Part shown: piece by piece, positions 8,180 through 23,807 of the stretch
Layout: each line of letters starts with the position of its first letter
How positions within the stretch are numbered: the stretch's first letter is position 1
Origin: a bacterium
Lineage (GTDB): Bacteria > Patescibacteriota > Minisyncoccia > Phycocordibacterales > JAKAEA01
Assembly (NCBI GenBank): GCA_021818465.1
Contig: JAKAEA010000001.1
Span: 235,662-299,661, forward strand
Direction of reading: 5' to 3'
DNA length: 64,000 nucleotides
Position numbers and translations under genes: made by a program
The notes under the pieces: model-generated
Seen by the model: the letters and a program-made list of their open reading frames with translations, nothing else
What the model was told of the DNA's origin: nothing
Database searches by the model: none

Positions 8180-8812
8180 TTAGGCGGGTACGTTTGTGGG
8201 TATTGCTCGAATTTCTTTAGTAACCATTCGGCCTTTTTCATCAACACTATATATAAGAATGGCGCCAAACGGCACCTCAAAATCTGCTATATTTTGGTCC
8301 GAAATGCTTTCTATATACTTAATAATAGAGCGTAGAGAATTGCCGTGCGCGATAACAAGCACGTTTTTACCTTCTTTAATTTTGGACAAGATAGTTTGGA
8401 GATAATACGGAACTGCTCGTTCGTACACCATTTGTAACGTCTCGCCGTGTGGAATGGGGTAATTCCAGCCGCGCCGCAATTCCTTAAATGTTTCTTTGCC
8501 CAAAAGTTTTTCCATTTCCCATTTGTTTTTTCCGGTATAGTCACCATAGTCACGTTCGTCGAGGGCAGCGTTGTGTTCAGCAGGAATTTCATCTTCATTG
8601 TTCGTGCTTAAAATACACGACAGAGTTTCCACAGCGCGCACTTGCATAGACGCAAAGGCAAAATCAATAGGAATGTCTTTAATCAGATTACCCATTTCAT
8701 TTGCTTTTTCAAAACCATAATCGGTGAGGTGGCGATCGCGTCGGCCAGTCCACTTGCCGAGTTTATTCCACTCGGATTCTTGATGACGGGCGAGTAGTAA
8801 TTTTCCATGCAT
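8180..8812 (-). CDS. gpmA: histidine phosphatase superfamily protein, cofactor-dependent phosphoglycerate mutase-like
   Basis: The N-terminus LLARHQESEWNKLGKWTGRRDRHLTDYG matches the dPGM RHGE/TGW signature. At 210 aa it is shorter than canonical GpmA. Confidence 0.65.
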   Translation of the reverse strand: MHGKLLLARHQESEWNKLGKWTGRRDRHLTDYGFEKANEMGNLIKDIPIDFAFASMQVRAVETLSCILSTNNEDEIPAEHNAALDERDYGDYTGKNKWEMEKLLGKETFKELRRGWNYPIPHGETLQMVYERAVPYYLQTILSKIKEGKNVLVIAHGNSLRSIIKYIESISDQNIADFEVPFGAILIYSVDEKGRMVTKEIRAIPTNVPA

Positions 8813-8824
8813 GGTGGTGGGTAT

Positions 8825-9796
8825 TTAGTTGACGACGTAGTGGGGCCGACGACCCTCAAAAAAGTCAATAATATTTTGAGCAGTGATAACGGCCATTTCA
8901 TCGCGCGTTTCAATGCTCGCTGAAGCAATATGAGGGGTAAGAATAACATTATTTAGACTCCGCAAACCGAGACTAACTCTAGGCTCAAATTCAAAGACGT
9001 CTAGGGCCGCCGCCGCAATAATGTTATTTTTTAACGCGTGTTCCAATGCGGCTTCTTCCACCACTGGTCCGCGGGCAGTATTAATAAGAAACGCGGTTGG
9101 CTTCATACGGCGTAAATGTTCGCCATTAATGAGGTGGCGGGTTGTTGGCAAGAGGGGCACGTGGAGACTCACCACGTCAGCTTTTGGTAATAGTGCATCT
9201 ATAGTTTGGTAATACACAGCCCCAGTTTCTTTTTCTAATTGTTCATTTTTTGTAATGTCGGTGTAGATAATATTCATACCGAGAGCTCGAGCATAATGAA
9301 CAACTCGTGCACCAATTCGGCCGGCTCCCACCAAGCCAAATGTTTTGCCGAGAATGTCGGTACCGATGAAATTCATCGGTGACCAGCCGTGGTATTCGCC
9401 CCGGCGAACCGACTGATCGGCTTCAACAATTCGGCCCGCTAACGCGAGCATAAGGGCAATGGTGTGCTCAGCGACCGCCTCGGCTGAACGAGGCGCCGGT
9501 GCATTGGTTACGATAATTCCTCGTTTTTTGGCTTCAATAAGGTCAATGTTGTCAAAGCCGCTGGCGTAATTAGCGTAGATTTTAACACTCGGCGCTGCAG
9601 TAAAAACGTCGACACCAATCGAATCAGTTAAAAGTGTAATGACGCCGTCGTACGGCTTTTTTTGCAACAAGGAAATAGTCTCATCACGGCTTGGTATAGC
9701 GTCAGAAGCATTAACGTCAACGTTGTACCCATGCTCACGAAGCACACTAAGACCCGCCTCCGGAATGGGGCGAGTTACGAACACAGATTTAGACAT
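8825..9796 (-). CDS. D-isomer-specific 2-hydroxyacid dehydrogenase (glyoxylate/hydroxypyruvate reductase or PGDH-like)
   Basis: NAD-binding GLVGAGRIGARVVHYARALGMNIIY and the catalytic region ...TARGPVVEEAALEHAL... typical of the family. Confidence 0.75.
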   Translation of the reverse strand: MSKSVFVTRPIPEAGLSVLREHGYNVDVNASDAIPSRDETISLLQKKPYDGVITLLTDSIGVDVFTAAPSVKIYANYASGFDNIDLIEAKKRGIIVTNAPAPRSAEAVAEHTIALMLALAGRIVEADQSVRRGEYHGWSPMNFIGTDILGKTFGLVGAGRIGARVVHYARALGMNIIYTDITKNEQLEKETGAVYYQTIDALLPKADVVSLHVPLLPTTRHLINGEHLRRMKPTAFLINTARGPVVEEAALEHALKNNIIAAAALDVFEFEPRVSLGLRSLNNVILTPHIASASIETRDEMAVITAQNIIDFFEGRRPHYVVN

Positions 9797-9882
9797 GTAA
9801 AAAGTATAGCATGTTTGGTCTATTGGTTTTGCTATACTATATATAGTAGTGGTTGATAACTATTGTATTAATTTTTTTTAAA

Positions 9883-10425
9883 ATGGCTCAAAAAATTTTT
9901 ATTGAAGACTCACCGTTTGCAAAGTTTGTTTTTTCCGATACACGCATTACTTGGTTTTGGTTTGTGGTGCGATTGTACGTTGGTTGGCAGTGGCTATCGG
10001 CTGGTTTTGAAAAAATAACGAGCTCGGCTTGGTTTGGTTCGCACGCCGGTAGCGCGCTCACCGGTTTTCTTAATGGTGCCATTGCTCAAACCTCTGGCGC
10101 TCACCCAAACGTGCAGGGGTGGTATGGAGTTTTTTTGCACGTTATCGTACTTTCTCATCCGGTTATCTGGTCAAATATAATTTCTGTCGGCGAATGTGCT
10201 GTGGGCGTCGCGCTTATTATCGGCGTCTTCACTGGTATCGCCGCATTTTTCGGTCTCTTTATGAATCTCAACTATTTATTGGCCGGTACGGTGAGTACGA
10301 ATCCAATTCTTTTTACTCTTGGCATTGGCCTCGTTCTGGCGTGGCGTGTTGCTGGTTGGTGGGGCGTGGATCGCTGGTTGCTTCCTATCCTTGGCACACC
10401 CTGGCAGAAGGTGGAGGTGGTGTAA
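9883..10425 (+). CDS. DoxX-family membrane protein
   Basis: RLYVGWQWLSAGFEKI and four TM helices. The ATG at 9883 is preferred over the upstream TTG at 9853. Confidence 0.6.
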   Translation: MAQKIFIEDSPFAKFVFSDTRITWFWFVVRLYVGWQWLSAGFEKITSSAWFGSHAGSALTGFLNGAIAQTSGAHPNVQGWYGVFLHVIVLSHPVIWSNIISVGECAVGVALIIGVFTGIAAFFGLFMNLNYLLAGTVSTNPILFTLGIGLVLAWRVAGWWGVDRWLLPILGTPWQKVEVV

Positions 10426-10600
10426 GATTAAAATAGGTTCTAAACACCCCATTGGGGAAAGTCGCAATCTCGCCAATCAGCCGAGACAGAGTCATATTTT
10501 TGAGATTTTTCGGATGGCATAGAAACATCCACCTATTAATTTTATACAAAAAAACCGCACGCTCAATCTAATGAACGTGCAGCTACTCCTACTTGTGTTA

Positions 10601-11569
10601 TTACAACACTGTGCGTAGGAAATGCAGAGCATTGTTGGCCGTAATTTTTTTGACCGTGTCAGGATCTCGAAACTCTTCTGTGAGTTTTCCGCTAATTATC
10701 TCCGCTTTGAGCGGAGAGTTTAGACATACTGGTTCAACTGGAAACCGGATGGGCCACCGAGGATCATCCGGAGCAAACTGCTTCATTCGCTCGAAATGAG
10801 TTCGAGCCTGAGGTTCGGGAATCTGACGATAGATCCCATCAGTTCCCAGGCTGACATTACCCAATCCGCAGATTTCAATCATGTGGCGCACGTGTTGCAA
10901 CCACGGATTAAGTGAATCGTCCGTTTGGGACAGGCCAAACGTCAAATTATAGACGCCGACAATACCACTAAATCGGGCGATGCCTGACAGAATATCGTCA
11001 GGCAAATTACGCGGGTTGTTATAAACACTATGACAACCGCCGTGGCTAGCCATGATGCGTACCCCGGGATTCTTTCGAACGAATTCAATAGTTTCCCGTG
11101 CTGTCTGATGACACGCGTGCGAGAGGTCGGCGACGATTCCGGCAACCGCCAATCCTCGCAAGAATTTTTTTCCTTGCTCAGTGAGCGGTTTGGTAGTCAT
11201 ATATCCGCCGCCGTAGGGATTTTCTTCATTCTTATAGGCGAGCGTGGTAAAGAGAATACCGAGCCGGCGAAGGGTTTTTAGATCTTCGATGTTGGCATCC
11301 ATCGGCGGCAATTGCAAACCAAGCACCACTCCGATTCGATCTCCAAGATTGTCCAAGTCTTCAATGTTTTGAATGACCAGGACATCCTCTTGTTTTTCAA
11401 AGACGCCTACTGTCTTTTGAACTTCGGCGATAATCGCCTCAGCTGTGCTGAATCGGCTGGCTATTGGCGGGCAAGCAGTGTAGCCAACAATCGCTGGTTT
11501 TGGAAATCTTGCGGCGAAAACCGGCAGCTCCATTTGCGAAGCGGGGAATGCGCAAAAGTCAACGAACAT
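10601..11569 (-). CDS. membrane dipeptidase, peptidase family M19 (renal dipeptidase-like)
   Basis: Conserved M19 blocks (HGGCHSVYNNPRNLPDD, DLSHACH). Start chosen at the ATG at 11569, which is preceded by AAGGAGG. The ORF-track start at 11635 is likely too far upstream. A terminator-like hairpin lies downstream on the minus strand (~10550-10590). Confidence 0.75.
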   Translation of the reverse strand: MFVDFCAFPASQMELPVFAARFPKPAIVGYTACPPIASRFSTAEAIIAEVQKTVGVFEKQEDVLVIQNIEDLDNLGDRIGVVLGLQLPPMDANIEDLKTLRRLGILFTTLAYKNEENPYGGGYMTTKPLTEQGKKFLRGLAVAGIVADLSHACHQTARETIEFVRKNPGVRIMASHGGCHSVYNNPRNLPDDILSGIARFSGIVGVYNLTFGLSQTDDSLNPWLQHVRHMIEICGLGNVSLGTDGIYRQIPEPQARTHFERMKQFAPDDPRWPIRFPVEPVCLNSPLKAEIISGKLTEEFRDPDTVKKITANNALHFLRTVL

Positions 11570-11757
11570 ATAAACCTCCTTAAGGTTTGAGAAAATTAGC
11601 GTGAATTGAAGACATTTCAATTCATCTATTGACAATAATACTATATTAATGTATATATGTCAATAGGTTGTCGTGCAATAAGTATAGATAAAAAAGATAG
11701 AACTAATATGTTACGATATGCTATATATTTTATTCTTCTACTAGAAAATACAATTTT

Positions 11758-13350
11758 ATGCCTCAAAAAATATTCAGACCACCAACTCTTGTTGAGTTTT
11801 CTCATAAGGAATCAAAAATCCAAAAAACTATTGCCGATAAACAACTTGATTTTATATGTCAAAAAGATAGCGCTTTTTGGAGTCAAGAGCGCAAGAAACA
11901 ATTATTTTCTCTTTTTAAAACTTCGGTAAAAACTCTACCAGCGTATCAAGAATTTCTTACTCGAGCTGGTGTTGATTATAAGAAAATTACTACGTTCGAA
12001 CAGTTTTCGAAAACTGTTCCGCCAGTTAGTAAGGATAATTATCTCAGAACATATTCTTGGAAACAATTATGCGCCCCCGGCGCACTCACGGGTCAATCGT
12101 TAGTGTTGACATCAACTTCTGGATCGACAGGAAAACCCTTTTATTTTCCTCGTAATGGTATTCTCGATACTCAATCGTCGCTCTATCATCAAATGTATTT
12201 GCGTAATAGCGGTATTGATCCTGATAAATCAACGTTGGTGATTGTGTGTTTTGGTATGGGTGTGTGGATTGGCGGTCTTATCACGTATCAAGCCTTTAAA
12301 TATATTGCTGAGCGAGGTCATCCAATGACTATTATTACGCCCGGGGTCAATAAAAAGGAAATTTACGAAGCAATGAAAAATGTGGCACCGAATTACGATC
12401 AAATAATTCTTTGCGGATACCCGCCGTTTATGAAAGACGTGATTGATGAAGGGAAAGCTAATGGTGTTGAGTGGCGTGATTTTAATATTAAAATGAGTTT
12501 TGCGGCTGAAAGTTTTTCGGAAAAATTTCGCGATTATCTTCTTCGTAAGACTGGTATGAAAAACCCTTATCGTGACACGGCCAATGTGTATGGCAGTGCT
12601 GATCTTGGCACGATGGCTATGGAAACACCGATCGCTATTCTTATTCGCCGCTTGGCTCTTCGAAACAAAAAAATCTATAAAAAACTTTTTGGAGATGCTA
12701 GTCGTCTACCGACTCTTGCCCAATTTATTCCATCATTTGTTAATTTTGAGGCGATTAATCGAAATATTTATGTCAGCGGTGACAATGTGTTGCCATTAGT
12801 TCGTTATCAGATTGGTGACAATGGTGGTGTTCTTGATTTTGCCGAAGTAGAGGAGGTTTTTAGTGAGGCGGGAGTTAACTTGCGCGCTAAGGCGGCGGCT
12901 ATTGGTATTACCGATACCATCGCCGAATTACCATTTGTCTATGTTTATGAACGGACCGATCTCTCTACAAAGCTTTATGGGGCGATTATTTATCCGGAGT
13001 ATGTAAAAGCCGGTCTTCAACATCCGACTCTGGAAAAATATATCACTGGCAAATTTACGATGTTTACGCAATATGATAAAAAACAAAACGAATATTTAGA
13101 AATAAATGTTGAATTAAAGCCCGGTATTGTTGAGTCAGACTGGCTTAATGAGAAACTTTTAAAGTTCGTTGTAGAATTTCTTTTAAATCGAAGTGCTGAG
13201 TATAAATATCTTACTGATATGCTTGGGACGCGCGTAAGTCCTAAAATTGTTTTTTGGCCTTATGAACATGCGACTCATTTCCAGGTTGGTATTAAGCAAA
13301 AGTGGGTAAAGAAGAATGATCAAGAAAAACGTAAAAATTTTAAAAAATAG
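11758..13350 (+). CDS. adenylate-forming enzyme, phenylacetate-CoA ligase (PaaK)/CapK/F390-synthetase-like
   Basis: P-loop-like TSTSGSTGKPFYFP typical of the PaaK-like ANL subfamily. 530 aa. Confidence 0.6.
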   Translation: MPQKIFRPPTLVEFSHKESKIQKTIADKQLDFICQKDSAFWSQERKKQLFSLFKTSVKTLPAYQEFLTRAGVDYKKITTFEQFSKTVPPVSKDNYLRTYSWKQLCAPGALTGQSLVLTSTSGSTGKPFYFPRNGILDTQSSLYHQMYLRNSGIDPDKSTLVIVCFGMGVWIGGLITYQAFKYIAERGHPMTIITPGVNKKEIYEAMKNVAPNYDQIILCGYPPFMKDVIDEGKANGVEWRDFNIKMSFAAESFSEKFRDYLLRKTGMKNPYRDTANVYGSADLGTMAMETPIAILIRRLALRNKKIYKKLFGDASRLPTLAQFIPSFVNFEAINRNIYVSGDNVLPLVRYQIGDNGGVLDFAEVEEVFSEAGVNLRAKAAAIGITDTIAELPFVYVYERTDLSTKLYGAIIYPEYVKAGLQHPTLEKYITGKFTMFTQYDKKQNEYLEINVELKPGIVESDWLNEKLLKFVVEFLLNRSAEYKYLTDMLGTRVSPKIVFWPYEHATHFQVGIKQKWVKKNDQEKRKNFKK

Positions 13351-14008
13351 TATAGTTGTCATAACTGGCGCTGGCCGGGGTTTGGGAAAATCGCTTGTTG
13401 CCGCTTTTACTAATCGTGAAGCACATGTTATTGCTTCTGATATTGATTCACGTCAATACAAAACTGATGTTCGAGATGAGGTTGAAGTAAAAAGATTAGC
13501 TGATGAAATTGTTAAAAAATTTGGTCAAATAGATATTTGGATAAACAATGCCGGTATTTGGTTACCGCGGATGTCAGTTCAAGAATTAGATATGAACCGT
13601 GTTCGGGAGATTTTTAATGTTAATGTCTTCGGTACAATACATGGCACTCGAGCCGCCCTGAAAATTATGGAGCATCAAGGAAAGGGAACTATCGTCAATA
13701 TTGTTTCTACTGCCGCGCTCGTTGGTCGACCGTTCTTTGCAACCTATTCGGCGAGCAAGCATGCTGAAAAAGGTTTTACGGATTCTGTGCGAGAAGAGTT
13801 GAGAGAGCAAGGAAGCAATGTCTCCATTATCGGTATTTATCCCGGTGGTATAAAAACCAACCTTTTTGATGAGAAAAAACCTGATGATTTTGCTAAGTAT
13901 ATGGAGCCAGAATTTGTCGCGGAAGCCATTGTTGCGAACTTAGAAAAGGAAAAGCCGGAACCCGACCTCATTCTTAAACGACCAGGTCAAGATATCAAAT
14001 TTAAATAG
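13316..14008 (+). CDS. short-chain dehydrogenase/reductase (SDR)
   Basis: VVITGAGRGLGKSL (TGxxxGxG), NNAGI, and the YSASK catalytic YxxxK. Confidence 0.8.
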   Translation: MIKKNVKILKNSIVVITGAGRGLGKSLVAAFTNREAHVIASDIDSRQYKTDVRDEVEVKRLADEIVKKFGQIDIWINNAGIWLPRMSVQELDMNRVREIFNVNVFGTIHGTRAALKIMEHQGKGTIVNIVSTAALVGRPFFATYSASKHAEKGFTDSVREELREQGSNVSIIGIYPGGIKTNLFDEKKPDDFAKYMEPEFVAEAIVANLEKEKPEPDLILKRPGQDIKFK

Positions 14009-14093
14009 CTAAAATTTAGTCACACCTTGGACGGTGCATGTACTCTTTTAAAGATGGTAGTATAGGGGTATTAGTAAATTCATTTTTAATACT

Positions 14094-15272
14094 ATGCTTT
14101 CACTTCATGAGATGTTAGAGAAAAAAGATGACGTTGGTGCAAAACCGATATTTTTTGATTTGTCCCAAACTGCCGATCAAAACAAACTCTCCGCACTTTT
14201 TGCTGACAATAAAATCCAACACGTTTCCGATGATTTTGAAGAACAGCACCAAGAATTATTTGCAGTCAGAAATCCGACGATTGTCTATACGGCGGGTTTC
14301 AAAGAAAAATTTAAAAAATATTACGAGGAACTAAAAACTCAAAAGCCTCTTCAGGAACATGGCCATTGGGTCTATTTTCCATGGCTCTCGAAAATTGTTC
14401 ATATTTTAGCTGAAGAAGATTTTTTTATTGTTCGAACTGCACGCAATAAAAATCTCATTAATACCGAGGAGCAAGAAAAATTTCACAATGCCAAAATAGG
14501 TATTGGTGGTTTATCGGTTGGTTCAAGCGTCGCCTACGCTATGACTCTTCAAGGTGGGCCGAAACACGTCAAACTTGCCGATATGGATCGTCTTGCCCTT
14601 TCCAATACGAATCGCATTCTTTCTGGTGTTGATAATCTCGGAATGCTCAAAGTAGAAATGGCCGCTCGTTTCATGTATCAGATTAACCCATATATGGAAA
14701 TAGAACTTTACCCCGACGGCCTGACTCCTGAAAATATTGAAGGGTTTTGCAAAGACTTAGATGTAGTGATTGATGAGCTTGATAATTTATCGGTGAAATT
14801 TTTGATTCGTGAACAAGCCAAAAAATATAAAATACCAGTCGTTATGGCTGCTGATAATGGTGACAATGCTGTAGTAGACGTTGAACGGTATGATTTAGAG
14901 CCGGATATGCCGTACTTTCATGGTCGTATGGGTGATGTCTCATACGACATGCTCACAAAATTAGATAAATTCGGTATCGGCAAAATGATCACCAAGCACG
15001 TTGGTCCGGAAAATGTGACCGAACGAATGCAGCAATCGCTCATGGAGATGGGGAAGACTATTGTCTCTTGGCCCCAACTTGGCGGCGCGGCTTTGATTAA
15101 TGGCGCGGCTGTGGCTTATTGTGTGCGAAAAATTCTGAACAGTCAGCCACTGGAGAAAAATCGCGCCCTTGTGTATTTGGACGAAAAACTTATTCCGACC
15201 TGGAACGAGCCGACCGAAATAAAAAAACGTGCCGCTATCGCCGATGGTTTTCGGAAAATTTTTGGGTTGTAA
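14094..15272 (+). CDS. E1-like ThiF/MoeB-family adenylyltransferase with ~130-aa N-terminal extension
   Basis: Rossmann motif GIGGLSVGS and the E1 signature DMDRLALSNTNR (DxDxxxxSNLNR). There are no CxxC zinc motifs. The N-terminal extension is unassigned. Confidence 0.7.
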   Translation: MLSLHEMLEKKDDVGAKPIFFDLSQTADQNKLSALFADNKIQHVSDDFEEQHQELFAVRNPTIVYTAGFKEKFKKYYEELKTQKPLQEHGHWVYFPWLSKIVHILAEEDFFIVRTARNKNLINTEEQEKFHNAKIGIGGLSVGSSVAYAMTLQGGPKHVKLADMDRLALSNTNRILSGVDNLGMLKVEMAARFMYQINPYMEIELYPDGLTPENIEGFCKDLDVVIDELDNLSVKFLIREQAKKYKIPVVMAADNGDNAVVDVERYDLEPDMPYFHGRMGDVSYDMLTKLDKFGIGKMITKHVGPENVTERMQQSLMEMGKTIVSWPQLGGAALINGAAVAYCVRKILNSQPLEKNRALVYLDEKLIPTWNEPTEIKKRAAIADGFRKIFGL

Positions 15273-15288
15273 TTATTTTAGTTTAATT

Positions 15289-16092
15289 CTATTTATTATT
15301 TTTTTGAGAATTTTTACCCAGTCTCTTAGCTTCCTCCCAGGCGAGATCAAAAACACTCTTCATAACGTCTGCCATTTCTTTACTTTCAACACTTATCGCT
15401 ATACCCCCGTGGTCGTGAGAAGCATAGGCAATTTTGTTATCGTAAATGACTAAATCGGCGGATATTTTGTATTTGTCTGGTGGTATGAGTATTGGTTTGT
15501 CAAGATTTTTAGTGTTATATCTAAGTAAATTTCGATTAAACTCATTATCGGGATGGATACCATGCATTTTGATATTTAATTGGTATCTTTTTTGTAAATA
15601 TTGCGGCATATAGTCACCCATGATTTCTCTAAGATTTTCTGTGGCGGAAATCACCCGCATCAATTTTTCTTTTGTTTTAAGAGTCTCTTCAAAAGCGCTA
15701 ATTAAACCTTCTTTTCCTTCAAATACTCGAACTTTCGGTTTTTGTTTAGTATCTTTATGTAAGGCTTTTAGTTCTGGTAATATTTTCTCAATTTTATTTA
15801 AAATATTTTCTTGCTTATCCACCATATTTTCGGCGGTATGAAGTAAAATATCAGGAGAAGTGGCGATATACTGTCGAACATCCTTATCGTCTGAGATACT
15901 TACTAATCCTTTTTTTATAAGAGATTCAAGTACGACATAAATTGTGCTTCTATTGATTTCGGTATGTCGAGAGATTTCTTGCACGGGAGCAATTTCAAGT
16001 TCAAGCAACGCTACGTAAATACGTGCCTCTTTTTCATTAAGACCAAATTCTATAAGAGTTTTAGTAAGCATAGTGTTAATGGGTGTTAACAA
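15289..16092 (-). CDS. TrmB-family transcriptional regulator
   Basis: N-terminal wHTH (LIEFGLNEKEARIYVALLELEIAPVQEISRHTEINRSTIYVVLESLIKKGLV). Divergently oriented from the small peptide gene. Confidence 0.7.
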   Translation of the reverse strand: MLTPINTMLTKTLIEFGLNEKEARIYVALLELEIAPVQEISRHTEINRSTIYVVLESLIKKGLVSISDDKDVRQYIATSPDILLHTAENMVDKQENILNKIEKILPELKALHKDTKQKPKVRVFEGKEGLISAFEETLKTKEKLMRVISATENLREIMGDYMPQYLQKRYQLNIKMHGIHPDNEFNRNLLRYNTKNLDKPILIPPDKYKISADLVIYDNKIAYASHDHGGIAISVESKEMADVMKSVFDLAWEEAKRLGKNSQKNNK

Positions 16093-16143
16093 TATTGTTA
16101 TAATTTACGTTTCGAAACTATTTTTGTTGTTATAGTATAACAA
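16088..16143. promoter_or_regulatory. two palindromic operator-like sites sharing a TTGTTATA half-site in the divergent intergenic region
   Basis: AACAATATTGTT at 16088-16099 (extending to TTGTTATAA) and TTGTTATAgTATAACAA at 16127-16143 are perfect inverted repeats. They lie between the TrmB regulator and the peptide gene. Confidence 0.4.
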
Positions 16144-16345
16144 CACAATAGAAATAATACAAGCTACTAGCGAATTAGTGCGGTGATAATTTTTTTTAGC
16201 AGTAGTTGTTTATAGGGAAAAAGTATTGTCTCGTGATTGTTATATGTTTACAACATTTTTGAAGGGTTTATTTTTTAGTTAGATAAAAAGTTGGAGTGCG
16301 TGATTTGTATATCAACTCATTGAAAAAAGAAAGGAGGTGATTATC

Positions 16346-16450
16346 ATGGCAAACCAACCAACAGGCCCCCATGGGGGTTCGTCGGGTGGCACTAGTACCG
16401 GCAACAATGGTTCGGGCGGTGGCTCTCACGGTGGTCCTCGAGGAGGATAA
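16346..16450 (+). CDS. 34-aa Gly/Ser-rich small peptide (MANQPTGPHGGSSGGTSTGNNGSGGGSHGGPRGG)
   Basis: Not in the ORF track (<60 aa). A perfect RBS (AAAGGAGGTG) lies 7 nt upstream of the ATG, and a rho-independent terminator follows immediately. No Cys. Ser/Thr sit in a Gly-rich context. Confidence 0.55.
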   Translation: MANQPTGPHGGSSGGTSTGNNGSGGGSHGGPRGG

Positions 16451-16471
16451 TTTCTCGTCGGACTATAGTAG

Positions 16472-16505
16472 AATAGGGTGAGAGTTTTCTCACCCTATTT
16501 CTAAT
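16472..16505 (+). terminator. rho-independent terminator after the small peptide gene
   Basis: AGGGTGAGA-gttt-TCTCACCCT, a 9-bp perfect stem followed by a T-rich tract. Confidence 0.7.
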
Positions 16506-16519
16506 TTATATAAAAATAT

Positions 16520-16789
16520 ATGTCTAATAAAAATAATATAAAATATCCTGTTGTTTTTATTATCTACAGAGATATCGTTCTCTGGGAGAGTCAGGTTAAG
16601 ATTAAAAGTGGTTTTCCTGTACATATTTTTCACGCAGTTGGTTTTTTAATTGAAGATAATACTGATAATTATGTTATTGCCCGAGAGATTGTGACAAATC
16701 AAAATGACGATCTCCGAGGGGCAATGACTATTCCCAAAGAAACAATCTTGCATTTTGAAAAGATCAAAGAAAATAAAATAATTTCTTAA
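16520..16789 (+). CDS. hypothetical protein (89 aa)
   Basis: ORF inside the AT-rich island with no recognisable motifs. Confidence 0.35.
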   Translation: MSNKNNIKYPVVFIIYRDIVLWESQVKIKSGFPVHIFHAVGFLIEDNTDNYVIAREIVTNQNDDLRGAMTIPKETILHFEKIKENKIIS

Positions 16790-16811
16790 AGATTAGCATA
16801 TTGTTATTTTT

Positions 16812-17309
16812 ATGAAATTAAAATCTACTCTCACCAATCGTTCAGGCAAAATATTGTCTGTTATTTATTCGGAAAAAGATCCTCTCATTGGCTTAGAAGG
16901 GAAAATTTTGCAAGGCGTTCACGCTTTTTGTTTTTGGGGAAATCACATGGTATTGGTGCATCATCCTAAAAGTGGGTGGATGCCACCGGGTGGTGGCATT
17001 GAACGTAATGAAAATTATATAGAAGCGACGTTACGAGAAGTTAAAGAGGAAACAAATATGAAAGTCACGTATCTAAAAACAATCGGTTTTCAGGATACAT
17101 ATGAGCCGGGGAAAGTGGTCCGACAGGTGCGGAATTTTTGTTTAGTTGAACCGTGTGGAGATTTTACATCAGATCCCGATGGTGAAATTATGGAAATTAA
17201 ACTTATTAGACCGGAAGACTATAAACAATATTTTGATTGGGGCGAAATTGGCGATAGAATTATGACGCAAGCGTTGAAATATAAGAGTAAAATAGCCGGG
17301 ATTTTATAA
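16812..17309 (+). CDS. NUDIX hydrolase
   Basis: Nudix box GGGIERNENYIEATLREVKEETN (Gx5Ex7REUxEExGU). Confidence 0.8.
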   Translation: MKLKSTLTNRSGKILSVIYSEKDPLIGLEGKILQGVHAFCFWGNHMVLVHHPKSGWMPPGGGIERNENYIEATLREVKEETNMKVTYLKTIGFQDTYEPGKVVRQVRNFCLVEPCGDFTSDPDGEIMEIKLIRPEDYKQYFDWGEIGDRIMTQALKYKSKIAGIL

Positions 17310-17381
17310 ACTTCTTATATTATTTGGTCTATCTAAGCTTATGAGATATAATCTTAATATCGAAAGTTATTGTGTTTTTCT

Positions 17382-18416
17382 ATGAAAGAAAACTATAAAG
17401 CTTGGCAAATAGATCTGAACTCTTTCAAAGAGCTTAAAACTGAAGTTGAGAGATTAAAATTTTTCTTAAAATTTGCCGTATTAGCTCCTTCGAGTCATAA
17501 TTCACAACCTTGGTTATTTTCAGTTTCTGAAAATAGTATTCAAGTTTATCGAGCAAAGTTTCGTTCTCTTCCTATCGCTGATGTAAATAATCGTCAACTT
17601 TTTTTAAGTATTGGTTGTGCTATTGAACATATTGTTATTGCTGCTCAGTATTATGGATATAGCACTAATGTAGAATATAAGGACGATTTAATTAACCCCA
17701 ATCTTGCTGCTATTATCACGTTTAGAAAAGAAGAAAAAAAAATTCAAACAATCGAAAGTTTACGTTATATCCAAGCTATTCTAAAAAGAAAGACAAATCG
17801 TGGTAAATACAAAAAAGAAAAAATTTTAGAAAATTTATTGGAAAAAATAGAAAAGTTAAAAACTCCCAATCTTAATATATATGTGATTAGTGATACTGAA
17901 AAAATATCTAGACTTGCCGATATTGCCGTTCAAGCTTCTATTGAATCAATGGTTGACGATAATTTTCGTTTAGAACTCTCTCATCATCTTAAACATAATT
18001 TAACAAAATCTAAAATTGGCATGCCTGGTTTTAGTTTGGGTTTGCCGACGCTGGTTTCATTTTTATTACCACATTTAATGAAACAATTTAATTTGGAACG
18101 AGTAGCTCAAAAACAAAACGAGAAATTATTTAAAAAACATACTCCATATATAGTTATATTAACGACTAACGGTGATTCACGAAAAGATTGGCTAGAAGCT
18201 GGCCGAGTATTTGAACAGATTACCCTTACTCTAACGCACGATAATATTAGCGTGTCTCCTTGGGGTGCGCCAATTCAAATAGGAGAATTTTACAGAAATA
18301 TTCAGAAAATTCTTCACACTAGTTTTCGGCCACAGATGTTTTTTCGAGTAGGGTATGCTCAAAAAAAAGCAAGATTTAGTCCTAGATTAATAGTTGAAGA
18401 TGTTCTGGATAAATAG
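17382..18416 (+). CDS. nitroreductase-family protein, Acg/tandem-nitroreductase-like
   Basis: APSSHNSQPW motif and a ~340-aa length consistent with the double nitroreductase fold. The ATG at 17382 is preferred over the TTG at 17370. Confidence 0.6.
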   Translation: MKENYKAWQIDLNSFKELKTEVERLKFFLKFAVLAPSSHNSQPWLFSVSENSIQVYRAKFRSLPIADVNNRQLFLSIGCAIEHIVIAAQYYGYSTNVEYKDDLINPNLAAIITFRKEEKKIQTIESLRYIQAILKRKTNRGKYKKEKILENLLEKIEKLKTPNLNIYVISDTEKISRLADIAVQASIESMVDDNFRLELSHHLKHNLTKSKIGMPGFSLGLPTLVSFLLPHLMKQFNLERVAQKQNEKLFKKHTPYIVILTTNGDSRKDWLEAGRVFEQITLTLTHDNISVSPWGAPIQIGEFYRNIQKILHTSFRPQMFFRVGYAQKKARFSPRLIVEDVLDK

Positions 18417-18526
18417 TTTTAATTCTAGTTTAGTAAGACCATGCTAAAGTCTAGAGCTTAAAGAATGGAGGATGATTTCGCATAAATAAGTTATAAGGTG
18501 TATGCTATATACAATATAGCAAAAAT

Positions 18527-20131
18527 ATGACTTTTGTATTCAATATAGATATTCTATCGGTTGGAATTGCGATTGCGGCTAATATAATTCTTGGTTTCGT
18601 AATTTTTGTTTCAAACAAAAGAAATATTACTACAACTCTATTTTTTTTACAGACAATTATATTATCTTTATGGAGCGTTGCTAATTATTTAACATATCAG
18701 ATTACTGATTTACAAATATCTTTATGGATGGAAAGAATGGTTATATTTTTAGCTGTTCCTAATTCGATTGTTTTTCTTTTACTTATGTATCATTTTCCTG
18801 AAAAACGCTGGTTGCTTTCTAGGAAAATAACACTTATTGGATTCGTTGTTGTTGTAAGTACAATGTTTTTAACATTAACTCCTTATATTTTTTCGGGCGT
18901 GCGATTAGTTGCTGGTATTCCAACTCCACAACCAGTAGTTCAGCCAGGGATTCTTTTATTTGCTGTAGTTTCGGTGCTCTCAATTCCGGTTGGAATTTAT
19001 TTCTTAATTGTTAAGTATGTAAAAAGTACTCAATTAAATAAATCACGAATTGGTTATTTGTTATTGGGAGCAATAATTATGTTTCTTTTTATTGTAATAT
19101 TAGATTTTGTATTTCCGGTCTTCATAAACGATACTCAATTTATTCCTTTTAGTGCAGTTTTTACCTTTCCTTTTGTAGGATTTACTTTTTATTCAATCTA
19201 TAGGCATCAACTTTTTAATATACGAGCAGCGTTAGTGGCTGGTCTAACATTTATTCTTTCTGTTTCAGCTTTCATTGAAATAATTTTTTCAACAACAGTG
19301 TCGGTGATAATTTTGCGTAGTGCGGTCTTTATCCTTGTGCTGGCTATCAGTATTATGATGAATCGTTTTGTGCAGACAATTGCTGAACAGCGTGAAAAAT
19401 TGGTAGTTGCCAATGAGGGTCAACAACAATTCATCCACTACCTCAATCACGAGTCAAAGGGGTACTTGACTGATGACAACGTAGTGCTCGCGGCGGTGCG
19501 GGATCAGGATTTCGGGCCGACCTCGCCGGAACTGCAGAAGATGGCCACCACCGTGTTGCGCAAGAACGCGCGGGCGGTGGATGATATTGACGAAATGATT
19601 CTCGGCGCCGACCTCGGCAGCGGGGTGGTGCGCTACACTATGGAGCCGTTTGATCTGGCTGCCGCGACACGCACCTTTGTGGACGAGTATCGACCGGACG
19701 CTGAGGAGAAACAGCAGAAGCTGGAGTTTCGTTTGGAACCGGCCGACGGCGACTTTACGGTGGTGGGCGACAAGCGACGCCTCATCCGCCATGCCCTGAA
19801 AAATTATCTCAAGAATGCCATCGTCTACACGCCCGTCGGCGGAACGATTAGTGTGACGCTCTCGCGGGTGCCGGCGGCGAAGGCGGGCGAGCCGGCGCGC
19901 GTGCGGCTCGCCGTGCACGACTCGGGTGTCGGTATTGCGCCGGAGGACAAGCCACGACTCTTTACCGAGGGTGGCAAGGGTCTCCATTCTACCGACGTCA
20001 ATCCCAACTCCACTGGCCGCGGCCTCTTCATCGTCAAGCAAATTTTGGACGCCCACCACGGCCGCGTTTTTGCCGACTCCGAGGGCGCTGGCAAAGGCGC
20101 GACGTTTGGGTTTGAGGTGCCAGTAGGGTAG
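18527..20131 (+). CDS. membrane sensor histidine kinase (polytopic N-terminal sensor, C-terminal HATPase)
   Basis: About 7 TM helices, then an H-box-like IHYLNHESKGYL and an HATPase_c domain (HDSGVGIAPEDKPRLF, GRGLFIVKQILDAHHGRV, GKGATFGFEVP). No response regulator is adjacent. The 3' ~700 nt are strikingly GC-rich. Confidence 0.75.
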   Translation: MTFVFNIDILSVGIAIAANIILGFVIFVSNKRNITTTLFFLQTIILSLWSVANYLTYQITDLQISLWMERMVIFLAVPNSIVFLLLMYHFPEKRWLLSRKITLIGFVVVVSTMFLTLTPYIFSGVRLVAGIPTPQPVVQPGILLFAVVSVLSIPVGIYFLIVKYVKSTQLNKSRIGYLLLGAIIMFLFIVILDFVFPVFINDTQFIPFSAVFTFPFVGFTFYSIYRHQLFNIRAALVAGLTFILSVSAFIEIIFSTTVSVIILRSAVFILVLAISIMMNRFVQTIAEQREKLVVANEGQQQFIHYLNHESKGYLTDDNVVLAAVRDQDFGPTSPELQKMATTVLRKNARAVDDIDEMILGADLGSGVVRYTMEPFDLAAATRTFVDEYRPDAEEKQQKLEFRLEPADGDFTVVGDKRRLIRHALKNYLKNAIVYTPVGGTISVTLSRVPAAKAGEPARVRLAVHDSGVGIAPEDKPRLFTEGGKGLHSTDVNPNSTGRGLFIVKQILDAHHGRVFADSEGAGKGATFGFEVPVG

Positions 20132-20255
20132 AAAGCGCTAGCATCTTGAAATATTGACAAAATAATATATAGATGATAAAATAAAAACAGATTCTTAACT
20201 CTGGGCGTTCCAGAGTGATCGGGTTTTTTCAAGTTCTCTTTGAAAGGAGAATAAT

Positions 20256-20633
20256 ATGAGTATCTCTATTTTTCGAAGGATGACTACAGTGTTTTTTGCA
20301 ATGGCAATCCTGAGTCTCGGTTTGTTGACTGGCTGCACGGAAAGTCAGGGAACATCGGTCAATGAGCTGCAAACTGAAATTTCGTCCATCAAAGATGGAC
20401 AGACGACAGAAAAACAGCTTATTGCTGCTCTCGGCCAACCTTACATGGTCAAGACAAATCTGGACGGGACGGAGACCCTTGGCTGGATGGGGGCGCAAGA
20501 GCATCAAAACGCCCTCCTATTGCTGACTGCAGTGGGGGTGTCGGCGGGGCATTCATACCACTCAAGGACTCTTGATGTGGTCGTGAAAAATGGTGTGGTT
20601 ATTAGTCACACTATTGTGACTAATAATCAATGA
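20256..20633 (+). CDS. lipoprotein, possibly SmpA/OmlA-like
   Basis: RBS GAAAGGAG upstream. Signal peptide with lipobox LLTGC. Confidence 0.55.
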   Translation: MSISIFRRMTTVFFAMAILSLGLLTGCTESQGTSVNELQTEISSIKDGQTTEKQLIAALGQPYMVKTNLDGTETLGWMGAQEHQNALLLLTAVGVSAGHSYHSRTLDVVVKNGVVISHTIVTNNQ

Positions 20634-20654
20634 TAATGACGAGGTTATTGCTTA

Positions 20655-20687
20655 CCGCCGCGTTTCTCTGAAACGCGGCGGTTTTTG
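20655..20687 (+). terminator. rho-independent terminator
   Basis: ACCGCCGCGTTT-ctctg-AAACGCGGCGGT followed by TTTTTG. Confidence 0.75.
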
Positions 20688-20730
20688 TATGTATTTGAAT
20701 CAGTGCAAGCGTGAGGGTATACTTGAATAT

Positions 20731-21333
20731 ATGAAAAAAACAATACTCATTAGTATTCTTATTATAGTGGTGGCGGTGATTATTTGGGCACTGGTGGATT
20801 TACGTTCAGCAACAGCGCCGACAATTCAATCACCAGTGAGTACTCTGCCCGACGCCGGCATGCTTCTTAGTAATGCCACCTACTCATTTTATGGTGACAC
20901 ATTCACACTCGCAAACGGAGCGGTGACACTTCAAGGACACGCTTTCGCAACAAGTTCGGCAACAACAACCATGCCGCTTATTCCTATGGGGTATAATCTC
21001 GCGGCTACGTCTACAGGTACTATTGGACCAAGTGGCGAGCCTGGTGCGGTGGCCGCACTGTATCGTGGCTTCGGCGCCAATCTTCAATGGACAACACTCT
21101 TTTTGTTTGCTCAAAATGCTGATGGCACTATTCACCAAATTGCTTCCGGTGTGGCCTATCAAGGTGATGCAAAAATTCAGTCGGTCTCGCTCGATAATGG
21201 CTCTATTACACTCTCTTTACTTGTAGTGAGTGCTGCTGATATGCAGAAGCCGCATTATGAACAAGTACCGACGCAACCAACCACTTTACATTTTACTGTT
21301 TCAGGTGATCGTATAATTCCTGCCACAAAATAA
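20731..21333 (+). CDS. hypothetical secreted protein
   Basis: N-terminal signal anchor MKKTILISILIIVVAVIIWALV. Start moved to the ATG at 20731, downstream of the terminator. The ORF-track start at 20689 overlaps the terminator T-tract. Confidence 0.5.
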   Translation: MKKTILISILIIVVAVIIWALVDLRSATAPTIQSPVSTLPDAGMLLSNATYSFYGDTFTLANGAVTLQGHAFATSSATTTMPLIPMGYNLAATSTGTIGPSGEPGAVAALYRGFGANLQWTTLFLFAQNADGTIHQIASGVAYQGDAKIQSVSLDNGSITLSLLVVSAADMQKPHYEQVPTQPTTLHFTVSGDRIIPATK

Positions 21334-21387
21334 ATATTTTTCTAAAAATTATGTATTAAATTGTATATTTAAAAAAATCGGAAACAA

Positions 21388-21603
21388 CTACCATACCGAT
21401 TCTTTTAGAGCGTGTCTAAAATCATGTTGCTCGCTCGTTGACATATGTTTCATTGTATTCGGATGGACGTTTTGCATATGTCGCCATAATGCTCCCACTA
21501 CATTTTTGATTGATGAAGAAGTTATGACGTTACCGCAAACATCGCATGCCGCAATCTTTGTATCCTGCGTTTTTACTTTTGTTTTTTTGTAATCATCGTA
21601 CAT
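21388..21603 (-). CDS. small C2H2-like zinc-finger protein (hypothetical)
   Basis: CDVCG...HMQNVH pattern. 71 aa. Confidence 0.3.
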   Translation of the reverse strand: MYDDYKKTKVKTQDTKIAACDVCGNVITSSSIKNVVGALWRHMQNVHPNTMKHMSTSEQHDFRHALKESVW

Positions 21604-21824
21604 ATTTTTTATTTTTTAAAATTAATAATTATATGCATGTATAACGATCGACACAACGCTATTGTGTGCACCGCTATGGCTCACTTGGTATACGACAGGT
21701 AATAGTGTGTGAAATTACATGTTCCGCATGTAAGTGTTTTTTATTAGCTTCGTCTATATAAACAGTGGCTTGTAGTACGGCTTCTTAACATCACTTTATA
21801 TTATTAGCCTAAATTATTTTTTAT

Positions 21825-22556
21825 ATGAATACACGCGTATTTTTTGTAGCAATTGCTCTACTTTGTGCCGCATCATTCGGTGGAATAATACCGGCTATTG
21901 CATTTGCTCAATCTTATCCAACATACTCATCTAGCTCTAGTGGTACGTATACCTCTGTGCTTGGTACCAACGGTATTGTGTATACCTATAATGCGAATAC
22001 CGGTACATATATGTCATCTCCTACTGGTGTTGCCTATAATCCGATAACGCAAATGTATACCTATAATGGTGTTACTTATTCCTACAATCAAAATACGCGT
22101 TTGTATACGGCGCACGGTGTATTTTTTACGTTTAACGCCTCCACAAATACGTTTACGCCGATTACAAACAGTGGTGTTACGACAACTACAAATGCTTCAA
22201 ACAGTACAATCGTTTTCTACACCAAAACTGGTACGCCAATATATGCAACACAAGGTGCATCTATCCCGGCTGGCCTTTATTACACCGCACGTGGTCGGCC
22301 CCTCTATTACTACGGTAATGGTTACTACTATAATTCCACTACACAAACGTATGGCAGTATTAACAATCCGAGTTTTATTAGTACAACGTATCCATTAACA
22401 ACTACGGTTGCTACACCTGGCGCACCCAATACTGGTGAAGGAGGCAATGCGCCGCTCAACTGGACATTACTTATACTCGCGGCCATTATTACTCTTTCTG
22501 GATCCACATATTTTGTGCACCGAGCGGTGGTAGCTCAGCGTACTATTTCTAAGTGA
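21825..22556 (+). CDS. surface protein with Tyr/Thr/Asn-rich repeats and a C-terminal sortase sorting signal
   Basis: Signal peptide and YTYNxNT-type repeats. The C-terminus is APNTGEGG, then a hydrophobic segment, then the basic tail HRAVVAQR. The sortase gene overlaps it by 4 nt. Confidence 0.6.
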   Translation: MNTRVFFVAIALLCAASFGGIIPAIAFAQSYPTYSSSSSGTYTSVLGTNGIVYTYNANTGTYMSSPTGVAYNPITQMYTYNGVTYSYNQNTRLYTAHGVFFTFNASTNTFTPITNSGVTTTTNASNSTIVFYTKTGTPIYATQGASIPAGLYYTARGRPLYYYGNGYYYNSTTQTYGSINNPSFISTTYPLTTTVATPGAPNTGEGGNAPLNWTLLILAAIITLSGSTYFVHRAVVAQRTISK

Positions 22557-23140
22557 TGAAAAAGAAAATTATTCCTTTTTTGGTTGGGATCATAACTATG
22601 ACTGCGGCGGTAGGGGGAGTGTCCGTTTTGATCGGTGCGACACTCTATGCTCCAGATGGTCGATTGCCCGAAGTGCATGCGGCTGTTGGCGCAAATAAAA
22701 ATCCCGCGCGTCTTCTCATTCCCAGTTTAGGAATTAATGCTGCGGTGCAGCGAGTTGGTTTAAATAGTCAGGGTAATATAGGTGCACCAGATAATTTTAC
22801 TGATGTGGCGTGGTTTGTGAGGAGTGCTGCGCCGGGAACGGTGGGCGGCGTATCAGTTATTGATGGTCACGTTGATAACGGTTTAGGATTGGCCGGTGTG
22901 TTTATTCATCTGAATACAATTCGTCCTGGTGCAGCGGTGAATGTGGTGACGAAGGGTGGAAAAACAGTGTATTTTAAAGTGACGAATGTTACAGCCTACA
23001 ATTACGAGCGTGTGCCAATGGAAAAACTTTTGCAAACTTCAGGCTCCTCAACAATTCGCCTCATTACCTGCGACGGCACCTGGGTTTCTGATCAGAAAAC
23101 ATACAATAAGCGTTTGGTGGTAACGGCCGTGGAGACGTGA
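22553..23140 (+). CDS. srt: sortase (class E/F-like transpeptidase)
   Basis: N-terminal TM. Catalytic His (VIDGHVD) and the TLxTC-type Cys motif (IRLITCDG). Confidence 0.8.
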   Translation: MMKKKIIPFLVGIITMTAAVGGVSVLIGATLYAPDGRLPEVHAAVGANKNPARLLIPSLGINAAVQRVGLNSQGNIGAPDNFTDVAWFVRSAAPGTVGGVSVIDGHVDNGLGLAGVFIHLNTIRPGAAVNVVTKGGKTVYFKVTNVTAYNYERVPMEKLLQTSGSSTIRLITCDGTWVSDQKTYNKRLVVTAVET

Positions 23141-23261
23141 TGAAATTTTTAGGCCTGTCAAGTTGACATTATTCAAAATTTGTTTTAAAAACAATATAAA
23201 ACAGCCTACTAGAAGCACAATTTAGAACGATGTAGTCAAATGTAATAAAACGGCTACTATA

Positions 23262-23807
23262 TTGTCTATGACCACAAAAGTCGTTTCAATAAAATCAGAA
23301 ACCGACTTTTTAGCAGCTTACGACTGCTATAGTGACGCAGTCTTTCGCTACAGTCTCTTGCGCATTCGAGATAAAGAGTTAGCAAAGGATATTACCCAGG
23401 ATACGTTCTTGCAGACCTGGAAATATTTTCAAGAAAAGGGTCCTATCTCAAATGTTAAGCCCTTTTTGTATACTGTAGCAATACGTTTGATTATTAATCA
23501 AACGTATAAGCATAAGGAACAGTCCCTTGAACGGTTAGCGGAAGAAATAGACTTTGAACCGGTGGATGGCACTACAACAGACGTGGCGGCCAGCCGGTCT
23601 GATCTTTTAGAAGGAGAAGAAGCACTTGCACACATTGAGCGGCTCAATTCGAGCTATCGGGATGTGCTCTACCTACGCTTTGTGGAGGGTTTAAGCCCTA
23701 AAGAAATTGCTCAGGTAATTGGAGAAAGTCGCAACCTCGTCGGAGTGCGGCTCAACCGGGCAATTAAAGCGCTCCGAAAATATCTTCGGGGCGGTCGTCA
23801 TATATAA
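23262..23807 (+). CDS. ECF-type RNA polymerase sigma factor
   Basis: Region 2 (DITQDTFLQTWKYF) and region 4 (YRDVLYLRFVEGLSPKEIAQVIGESRNLVGVRLNRAIKALRK). Confidence 0.8.
   Translation: MSMTTKVVSIKSETDFLAAYDCYSDAVFRYSLLRIRDKELAKDITQDTFLQTWKYFQEKGPISNVKPFLYTVAIRLIINQTYKHKEQSLERLAEEIDFEPVDGTTTDVAASRSDLLEGEEALAHIERLNSSYRDVLYLRFVEGLSPKEIAQVIGESRNLVGVRLNRAIKALRKYLRGGRHI

Follow-up and report, generated by a model that had tools for sequence, protein, structure and literature searches.

The sensor histidine kinase gene carried by a 64,000-nucleotide (nt) stretch of the Patescibacteria contig JAKAEA010000001.1 (assembly GCA_021818465.1, forward-strand positions 235,662 to 299,661; this whole stretch is called the window hereafter) is, in our judgement, probably a real mosaic, in which a seven-transmembrane (7TM) sensor has been joined to a kinase core that would have been recombined in from a member of the same Patescibacteria family with a higher content of guanine plus cytosine (GC). 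The gene, an open reading frame (ORF) of 534 amino acids (aa) at 18527-20131 on the plus strand, changes abruptly in composition part of the way along, and its two parts differ in their nearest relatives. While sensor/core recombination events are usually inferred from domain architectures long afterwards, the foreign composition of this core has not decayed, so that the breakpoint can be read to within a few codons, together with its location in the connector helix, the preservation of the helical register and the independence of the joins that the same core has made elsewhere.

Across the gene, GC content in 200-nt windows runs at 0.24-0.38 up to about 19400, rises to 0.62-0.64 over 19500-20100 and falls back to 0.36 past the stop codon, which bears out the description in an earlier note on this DNA of an AT-rich sensor part followed, in the same reading frame, by a part that is GC-rich to the stop. 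GC content at third codon positions (GC3) lies between 0.14 and 0.36 in 50-codon bins of the first half and between 0.70 and 0.82 in those of the second, with first and second positions higher there too. A maximum-likelihood change point places the shift in GC3 after codon 301 (nt 19430, support codons 300-302), 7 codons upstream of the phospho-acceptor His308, with 0.21 to the left of it and 0.75 to the right; the log-likelihood improves by 81.2, whereas none of 1000 codon shuffles exceeded 10.8, and the step is as abrupt as the earlier note had it. The change point on the 3' side, at nt 20129 (support 20092-20151), is the stop codon, and the GC-rich block between the two is about 700 nt long and in frame. 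Among the other ORFs of at least 150 aa in the window, GC3 in 100-codon windows averages 0.375 (standard deviation 0.079, maximum 0.62); the core, at 0.74-0.77, stands about 5 standard deviations above this mean, while the sensor half (0.21) and the nitroreductase gene upstream of it (0.19) lie about 2 below. Because the step is greatest at third positions, we exclude a change in amino-acid composition from membrane to soluble protein as its cause. Antisense ORFs are present as well (19454..20059, 201 aa; 19825..20232, 135 aa) and were rightly called spurious, the longest antisense stop-free run falling within the codon-shuffle expectation for the same segment (p = 0.14-0.22). Sense-frame synonymous sites are near saturation between core copies (synonymous divergence, dS, 1.2-2.0), which argues that no second frame is under constraint, and on both grounds we reject the 201-aa antisense ORF as a real overlapping gene.

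The relatives of the two halves are likewise discordant. About 50 full-length homologues of the kinase were found at 28-57% identity, and they come from Patescibacteria wherever the source names them. In identity-based comparisons of each half, taken from an alignment of 47 sequences, two homologues are close to the window kinase in the core and remote in the sensor half (P0003, 83% and 21%; P0004, 82% and 17%), whereas three others show the reverse, with sensors that are 53-55% identical and cores that reach only 27-41% (P0002, 54% and 36%; P0005, 53% and 41%; P0009, 54% and 27%). A second replacement is documented by P0003 and P0280, whose sensor halves are 73% identical and whose identity falls to roughly 35%, as read off the alignment, right after 'REALAV|AN', where a 14-aa (two-heptad) indel is found. 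Among the homologues, indels in the connector between the sensor and the dimerization and histidine phosphotransfer (DHp) domain measure exactly 7 or 14 residues (alignment columns ~317-323; P0003 against P0280), which fits a coiled-coil connector that is sensitive to register. In the window gene, the point at which similarity changes hands (~19405) matches the composition breakpoint (19430), and a step at synonymous sites beyond chance and different nearest relatives for each segment, as in an intragenic mosaic, are found as well. Both halves have Patescibacteria as their nearest named relatives, contrary to the suggestion of the earlier note that their best hits might fall in different phyla; a donor in another phylum was likewise not seen, the nearest cores being from Patescibacteria wherever the source names them. 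Since the sensor half sits in its usual gene neighbourhood, it is the core that is the discordant part.

The core itself recurs in other contexts. In a DNA alignment of window 19330-20200 with contigs L003 (ENA ERZ27237460) and L004 (ERZ27237538), homology starts at window nt ~19405 (GCC AAY G..), no more than about 25 nt ahead of the composition step, and runs as far as the stop codon; the flanks on either side are unrelated. The window core is 77-78% identical to the other two in nt and 82-84% in aa; the L003 and L004 cores are 96.8% identical to each other in nt, yet their sensors are very different, and each of the three genes has a GC3 step, from 0.24-0.28 up to 0.70-0.75. A fourth copy, 80% identical in aa to the window core, lies on the 1144-bp contig L017 (VFSW01471855.1), where a GC content of about 0.55 drops to 0.21-0.27 directly past the stop. 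This contig starts exactly at 'ANAGQQQF' (1-10), as would be expected if the core had more than one upstream context in the sample. L004 stops 11 nt past the stop codon (3358-3369) and L003 ends 155 nt beyond it (4764-4919), and contig breaks so near the core edges suggest several contexts for the core within those samples.

Each copy whose sensor is visible has a different sensor and its own crossover point. The breakpoint falls 7 codons before His308 in the window gene, after ...ANEGQQQ; 14 codons before the histidine in L004, directly ahead of ANAGQQQ; and 25 codons before it in L003, at the membrane exit (...LIRSVN|QEVKSRE). As these composition breakpoints differ, the crossovers are independent, and one core has thus been joined independently to at least three sensors. 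Window codons 295-301 (GCC AAT GAG GGT CAA CAA CAA) are AT-ending and carry the glutamate of the sensor-half relatives (ANEGQ in P0002 and P0010), while the other core copies have ANAGQ in GC-ending codons, the motif being conserved in both parental types; these codons and the recipient-type glutamate place the window crossover most likely within nt 19409-19430, as far as the sequence can tell. Steps are also seen in two related genes with other cores, L022 (GC3 0.28 to 0.62) and L024 (0.26 to 0.56), at 34-35 codons before the histidine, and are absent from L021, whose core has a GC3 of 0.24. The connector of about 35 codons between the last transmembrane (TM) helix and the histidine is a recurrent breakpoint zone in this kinase family. 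With discordant halves and coinciding breakpoints, the in-frame graft of a kinase core that the earlier note had proposed holds up, although 'recent' applies to it only in a relative sense and the high-GC donor was not found.

The mosaic gene encodes a complete class I sensor histidine kinase, with the order of TM sensor, H-box and HATPase that the earlier note had found coherent. Two Pfam domains score above cutoff, HisKA_7TM (PF16927) with 42.1 bits (cutoff 28.6) at aa 16-232 and HATPase_c (PF02518) with 70.8 bits (cutoff 26.4) at aa 417-533; HisKA (PF00512) is not matched at E <= 0.01. The H-box is an atypical NHESKG, an 'HxxKG' variant common among related Patescibacteria kinases, and the missing PF00512 match lowers confidence in the label 'canonical HisKA subfamily' but not in that of 'histidine kinase'. 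His308, N426, N430, D465, G467, G469, F479, G497 and G499 are invariant across the 47 aligned homologues; from general knowledge of class I kinases we take N426/N430 to be the N box, D465-G467-G469 the G1 box, F479 the F box and G497-G499 the G2 box. A phmmer search matches aa ~291-530 to solved class I cores (best 7z8n, E = 1e-15), and the structure matches include the solved chimeras 4gcz, 8a3u and 4cti. The AlphaFold model (mean predicted local distance difference test score 86.4) has long helices bundled together across aa 3-283. A continuous helix, 258-325, extends from the last TM segment through the connector and the junction into DHp helix 1, where His308 lies; it is followed by DHp helix 2 at 334-365 and an alpha/beta catalytic, ATP-binding (CA) domain at 373-533. 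The CA domain with its boxes and the two-helix DHp domain with its H-box histidine are both present, and the polytopic N-terminal region seen by Pfam and in the model makes this a HisKA_7TM kinase. The ratio of nonsynonymous to synonymous divergence (dN/dS) of the core is 0.07-0.10 among the copies and 0.045 between L003 and L004. With its motifs intact and its core under purifying selection, the kinase looks functional, its kinase activity being predicted.

A sharp step within one gene can also arise in the assembly, and the earlier note had offered a chimeric join as the alternative to a graft: the kinase genes of two organisms would have been fused at a k-mer shared in the conserved H-box region. 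The contig is indeed metagenome-assembled, the junction does lie in a conserved motif, and related contigs break at or near the core edges (at the 5' edge in L017, just past the stop in L004), a sign that the core perturbs assembly graphs. Yet a Logan contig from SRR13299515, the product of another assembler, has the same sequence throughout window 8527-23366 and so crosses both boundaries; the window sequence is also found in NCBI GCA_027341405.1 (contig DAIEME010000001.1), and the identical kinase protein is recorded in that assembly, in Logan SRR13299515 and in further large contigs. A block of about 700 nt would moreover require two joins, both in frame and at functional boundaries, the second of them at the stop codon, past which the contig runs collinear with sister genomes instead of continuing into the genome of a second organism. 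Three other contigs from other samples carry the same kind of in-frame join, with the same architecture, different sensors and different breakpoints, and the helix register is preserved across the join, unlike what would be expected of a chimera. We reject an assembly chimera, as judged on assembled contigs, and hold it to be extremely improbable; an abrupt change of GC inside a gene of a metagenome-assembled genome thus need not signal misassembly, a point of consequence for annotation and binning. The step might instead involve no transfer at all: selection on mRNA or DNA, or GC-biased gene conversion, would keep the core GC-rich where it stands, and the sensor half would reflect the AT bias of the host. 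This would agree with the GC-rich state of all four known copies in AT-rich DNA, with the failure to find a GC-rich donor genome, with a GC3 that still amounts to 0.60-0.75 across copies separated by a dS above 1 (from the window, 1.2-1.5 in general and 1.17 for L003, with GC3 at 0.70-0.75), and with several other family members whose core likewise exceeds the sensor half in GC. Maintenance of composition cannot, however, account for halves that match the same homologues at 17-21% and at 82-83%, nor is a GC-rich core required by the family, as L021 illustrates. Conversion between paralogues would be left without a visible partner, no second protein with this core being listed from the window's genome and no second kinase core being present in the window; the antisense ORF does not exceed the length predicted by composition. 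When substitutions are polarised by parsimony, on nearly saturated sites and with four sequences only, the changes specific to L017 (GC3 0.60) are AT-biased, with 46 from G or C to A or T against 15 in the opposite direction, so that GC is not actively held; those of L003 and L004 lean mildly towards AT, and those of the window core show no AT bias (15 against 19 overall, 7 against 14 at third positions). Taken on these nearly saturated data, most of the divergence between the copies may have taken place in a GC-rich background, each copy having entered an AT-rich genome on its own, with L017 resident longest and the window copy least ameliorated. We regard the absence of any transfer as very unlikely.

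Several findings nonetheless weigh against a core that was recombined into a resident sensor kinase gene. No sequence homology was found downstream of the core stop codon, which leaves the 3' join unexplained; the core was found in no GC-rich genome (protein clusters, representatives and GTDB, as well as JGI metagenomes among the matches listed), and every known copy lies in AT-rich surroundings, two of the four with little or no downstream flank. The small and nearly saturated basis of the substitution test just described counts here too, and the predicted rewiring of the kinase has to reckon with a 64-kb window in which no receiver domain or response regulator is encoded. In L022 (2001-4800) and L024 (2800-4800), furthermore, it is the nitroreductase gene and the sensor half (GC3 0.27-0.31), joined in L022 by an additional gene of 323 aa, that form the AT-rich alien segment, while the kinase core matches hosts with a GC3 of ~0.5-0.65. 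This is the mirror image of the window pattern, and the incoming side may vary between cases. The polarity could then be reversed in the window as well, a gene with a GC-rich core having been there first and the AT-rich sensor half having been recombined onto it together with the nitroreductase cluster; in keeping with this, the island that holds the kinase is AT-rich right up to the junction. The window core (GC 0.62, GC3 0.75) nevertheless mismatches its host (GC 0.43, GC3 0.375), sister genomes have no kinase at the locus, and the conserved neighbourhood stays with the sensor half and not with the core. One spreading core is also a simpler account of the same core on three sensors than three replacements of the sensor would be, and on balance we find the reversed polarity unlikely.

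The search for a donor of the incoming core has so far led to distant relatives. A core-only search of a 5.8-billion-cluster protein collection gave no further relative above 43% identity, and an exhaustive core-only HMMER scan of 1.84 billion representatives returned the P0004 cluster at 83% and everything else at 46% or below. Most of these matches are proteins of 510-550 aa with the core positioned as in the window kinase, which suggests that they belong to the same Patescibacteria 7TM-kinase family. Among GTDB species genomes the closest core match is 31% identical, with no donor; phage and plasmid collections yielded generic kinase matches only, at 32% or below; IMG/VR yielded none by peptide or DNA pattern. 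No flanking repeats or site-specific recombination sites were found around the core, and in view of this and of the lack of a close phage or plasmid match we reject a cassette borne by a mobile element (phage, plasmid or integron-like). The higher-GC relatives that were found are distant (46% or below): P0121, 43% identical, lies on a uniformly GC-rich contig (GC 0.59, GC3 about 0.8) and P0122 on a contig of 0.51 GC, and the named nearest outside cores are from Paceibacterota and Kaiserbacteria. Higher-GC members of the same broad group thus exist, and the actual donor is unsampled. Two long proteins met in these searches, P0202 (2017 aa) and P0271 (1486 aa), have 4 and 2 matches to this type of core, respectively, and may be multi-core or repeated transmitter proteins.

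We hypothesize that diverged family members underwent homologous recombination in the conserved helical connector and that the whole DHp-CA core, through to the stop codon, was thereby replaced. In the window gene the crossover would have fallen in the A-N-E-G-Q-Q-Q codons, 7 codons before His308, and the incoming core would be a homologous one, contributed by a different, higher-GC member of this Patescibacteria family of 7TM kinases. With the helical register apparently kept across the join, the sensor would still drive autophosphorylation of His308. In histidine kinases generally, specificity for the partner is determined by the part of DHp helix 1 below the histidine and by the base of helix 2. 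As the imported core brings this partner-selecting surface with it, the swap would put a different, unlinked response regulator under the control of the old input; with no receiver domain in the window, the kinase is an orphan here. At least two other 7TM sensors, both very different, would have received the same core through independent recombination. The gene thereby offers a concrete case on whether exchange of the DHp-CA core rewires partner specificity, and its joins offer natural design rules for kinase chimeras.

The recurrence of the core invites a bolder idea, that the GC-rich DHp-CA core is a 'portable' transmitter module which repeatedly invades different Patescibacteria 7TM sensor-kinase genes. 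We consider this unlikely and put it forward as speculation; if true, many inputs would be funnelled into one response regulator, the spread of the module could be favoured by compatibility with a widely shared or co-transferred regulator, and the core would act as a signalling 'adaptor' open to selection, passed from genome to genome as one portion of a gene.

New combinations of sensors and kinase cores are known to arise during histidine kinase evolution, orphan kinases without an adjacent regulator being typical products of such shuffling (Alm, Huang & Arkin 2006, PMC1630713). The same study called the mechanism of the expansions that accompany shuffling unclear and noted that transposition cannot make in-frame fusions. 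The shuffling described there was inferred from domain architectures and mostly concerns paralogues within a genome, whereas the join in the window is seen at codon resolution through its unameliorated composition, and one core is found on three sensors, on different contigs, each with its own crossover in the connector helix. Frequent gene exchange, mainly among Patescibacteria, has been reported (Gios et al. 2025, PMC12455944). The mosaic described here suggests that such exchange also acts below the level of whole genes. It is a variant of the known domain shuffling of histidine kinases, set apart by its codon-level resolution and by one core recurring on several sensors.

Among better-known systems, there is a likeness to AgrC of the agr quorum-sensing loci, which combines a hypervariable sensor half with a conserved kinase half and whose sensor half travels with the genes adjacent to it upstream. 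As in AgrC, an intragenic boundary divides a variable polytopic sensor half from a shared kinase half. AgrC, however, belongs to the HPK10 subfamily and is paired with agrB, agrD and agrA, and its variation is allelic within species, without a large GC step; the window locus has no agr genes, its neighbours encode a ThiF-like protein and an Acg-type oxidoreductase, and its shared half is compositionally foreign. The mosaic pbp genes of pneumococci resemble it as partial gene replacements made in frame by recombination between diverged homologues, but there the foreign blocks come from close relatives (DNA divergence from a few to ~20%) and are flanked by homology left and right, while here a whole functional module has been replaced by one with ~27-41% aa identity to the cores of the sensor's relatives, and beyond the stop codon, where the block ends, there is no homology. 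Engineered chimeras such as Taz and YF1, finally, are fused in the connector ahead of the H-box and work only when the heptad register is kept; the join in the window and the 7- or 14-residue indels of its homologues obey the same rule, but as a natural event in an uncultivated lineage and not as laboratory constructs.

By its SecA protein, the host falls among Paceibacteria-like Patescibacteria, with Paceibacterota, Parcubacteria and Taylorbacteria as the nearest named relatives at 64-71% identity. The kinase lies within about 700 nt of the right edge of a variable island (Table 1) whose AT-rich part spans 11.5-19.4 kb. The sister contig L029, whose SecA is 80% identical, runs collinear with the window over 8180-9815 and resumes at 22014, its 2-hydroxyacid dehydrogenase gene running straight into the genes upstream of the sortase gene; the roughly 12 kb that it lacks hold genes for DoxD, an M19 peptidase, a 530-aa protein, an SDR protein, the ThiF-like protein, the TrmB-family regulator, a NUDIX protein, the nitroreductase and the kinase, along with small ORFs. 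Two further sisters, L027 and L028 (SecA 86%), are collinear only from ~20806 rightwards, and none of the three has an orthologous kinase; because the whole island is missing from the sisters, they cannot date the swap.

Table 1. Positions in the window of the kinase gene, its parts and its neighbours.
Feature	Position	Strand	Basis
Variable genomic island holding the kinase, approximate limits	9850..21900	.	tblastx collinearity, gene tables
ThiF-like protein; matches N-terminal part of Rv1355c family, below cutoff	14094..15272	+	Pfam/NCBIfam
TrmB-family regulator, recurrent neighbour of this kinase family	15289..16092	-	Pfam, synteny
Acg-family FMN (flavin mononucleotide)-binding oxidoreductase (nitroreductase-like), GC3 0.19	17370..18416	+	NCBIfam NF047509, 226.8 bits (cutoff 199)
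Complete sensor histidine kinase ORF, two-part mosaic	18527..20131	+	ORF and Pfam
Recipient-type part: polytopic 7TM sensor, last TM helix and start of cytoplasmic connector; AT-rich, GC3 0.21	18527..19408	+	
Putative crossover zone, codons 295-301 (A-N-E-G-Q-Q-Q)	19409..19429	+	DNA and protein alignments, GC3 change point
Kinase-core cassette, GC-rich, from DHp helix 1 (His308) through DHp helix 2 and the CA (ATP-binding) domain to the stop	19430..20131	+	GC 0.62, GC3 0.75
His308 codon, predicted phospho-acceptor in H-box NHESKG	19448..19450	+	Conservation, model, structure alignment
HATPase_c, aa 417-533	19775..20125	+	Pfam
Antisense ORF, 201 aa, by-product of high GC3	19454..20059	-	Shuffle test, dS

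The neighbourhood of the kinase recurs, to varying degrees, around the relatives of its sensor half, P0002, P0005 and P0009 among them. In all five related contigs examined, the gene immediately before the 7TM kinase is a nitroreductase gene; three of the five also have a ThiF-like gene upstream, and three a TrmB gene nearby. The nitroreductase also matches, below cutoff, the C-terminal half of the NCBIfam 'Rv1355c family', and from their sequences it and the ThiF-like protein look like the two parts of a split Rv1355c-type protein. At 11758-13350 the window encodes a 530-aa protein that falls in no Pfam or NCBIfam family; proteins of 510-529 aa are encoded upstream of ThiF in L021, L022 and L023, and the 530-aa protein may belong to the same conserved cluster. 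In L024 (5583-9145) a 7TM kinase with a canonical HisKA domain is followed by a single-domain response regulator, a fusion of a receiver with T2SSE and another T2SSE (type II/IV secretion) ATPase, genes that may constitute an output pathway, by pilus or secretion, for this sensor family; no such response-regulator or T2SSE genes lie next to the window kinase.

On the other side, 23 nt past the kinase stop codon, a near-consensus sigma-70-like promoter (20154-20182; TTGACA, a spacer of 17 nt and TAAAAT, with TG) precedes a gene for 125 aa at the right edge of the island. Further on, window 21825-22556 encodes a 243-aa secreted protein rich in tyrosine, threonine, serine and asparagine, with a weak match to the OCRE domain. 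It ends in 'APNTGEGG' and a hydrophobic tail and is encoded directly upstream of the sortase gene (22553-23140), and it is probably, to go by its tail and position, a sortase substrate with a non-canonical sorting signal.

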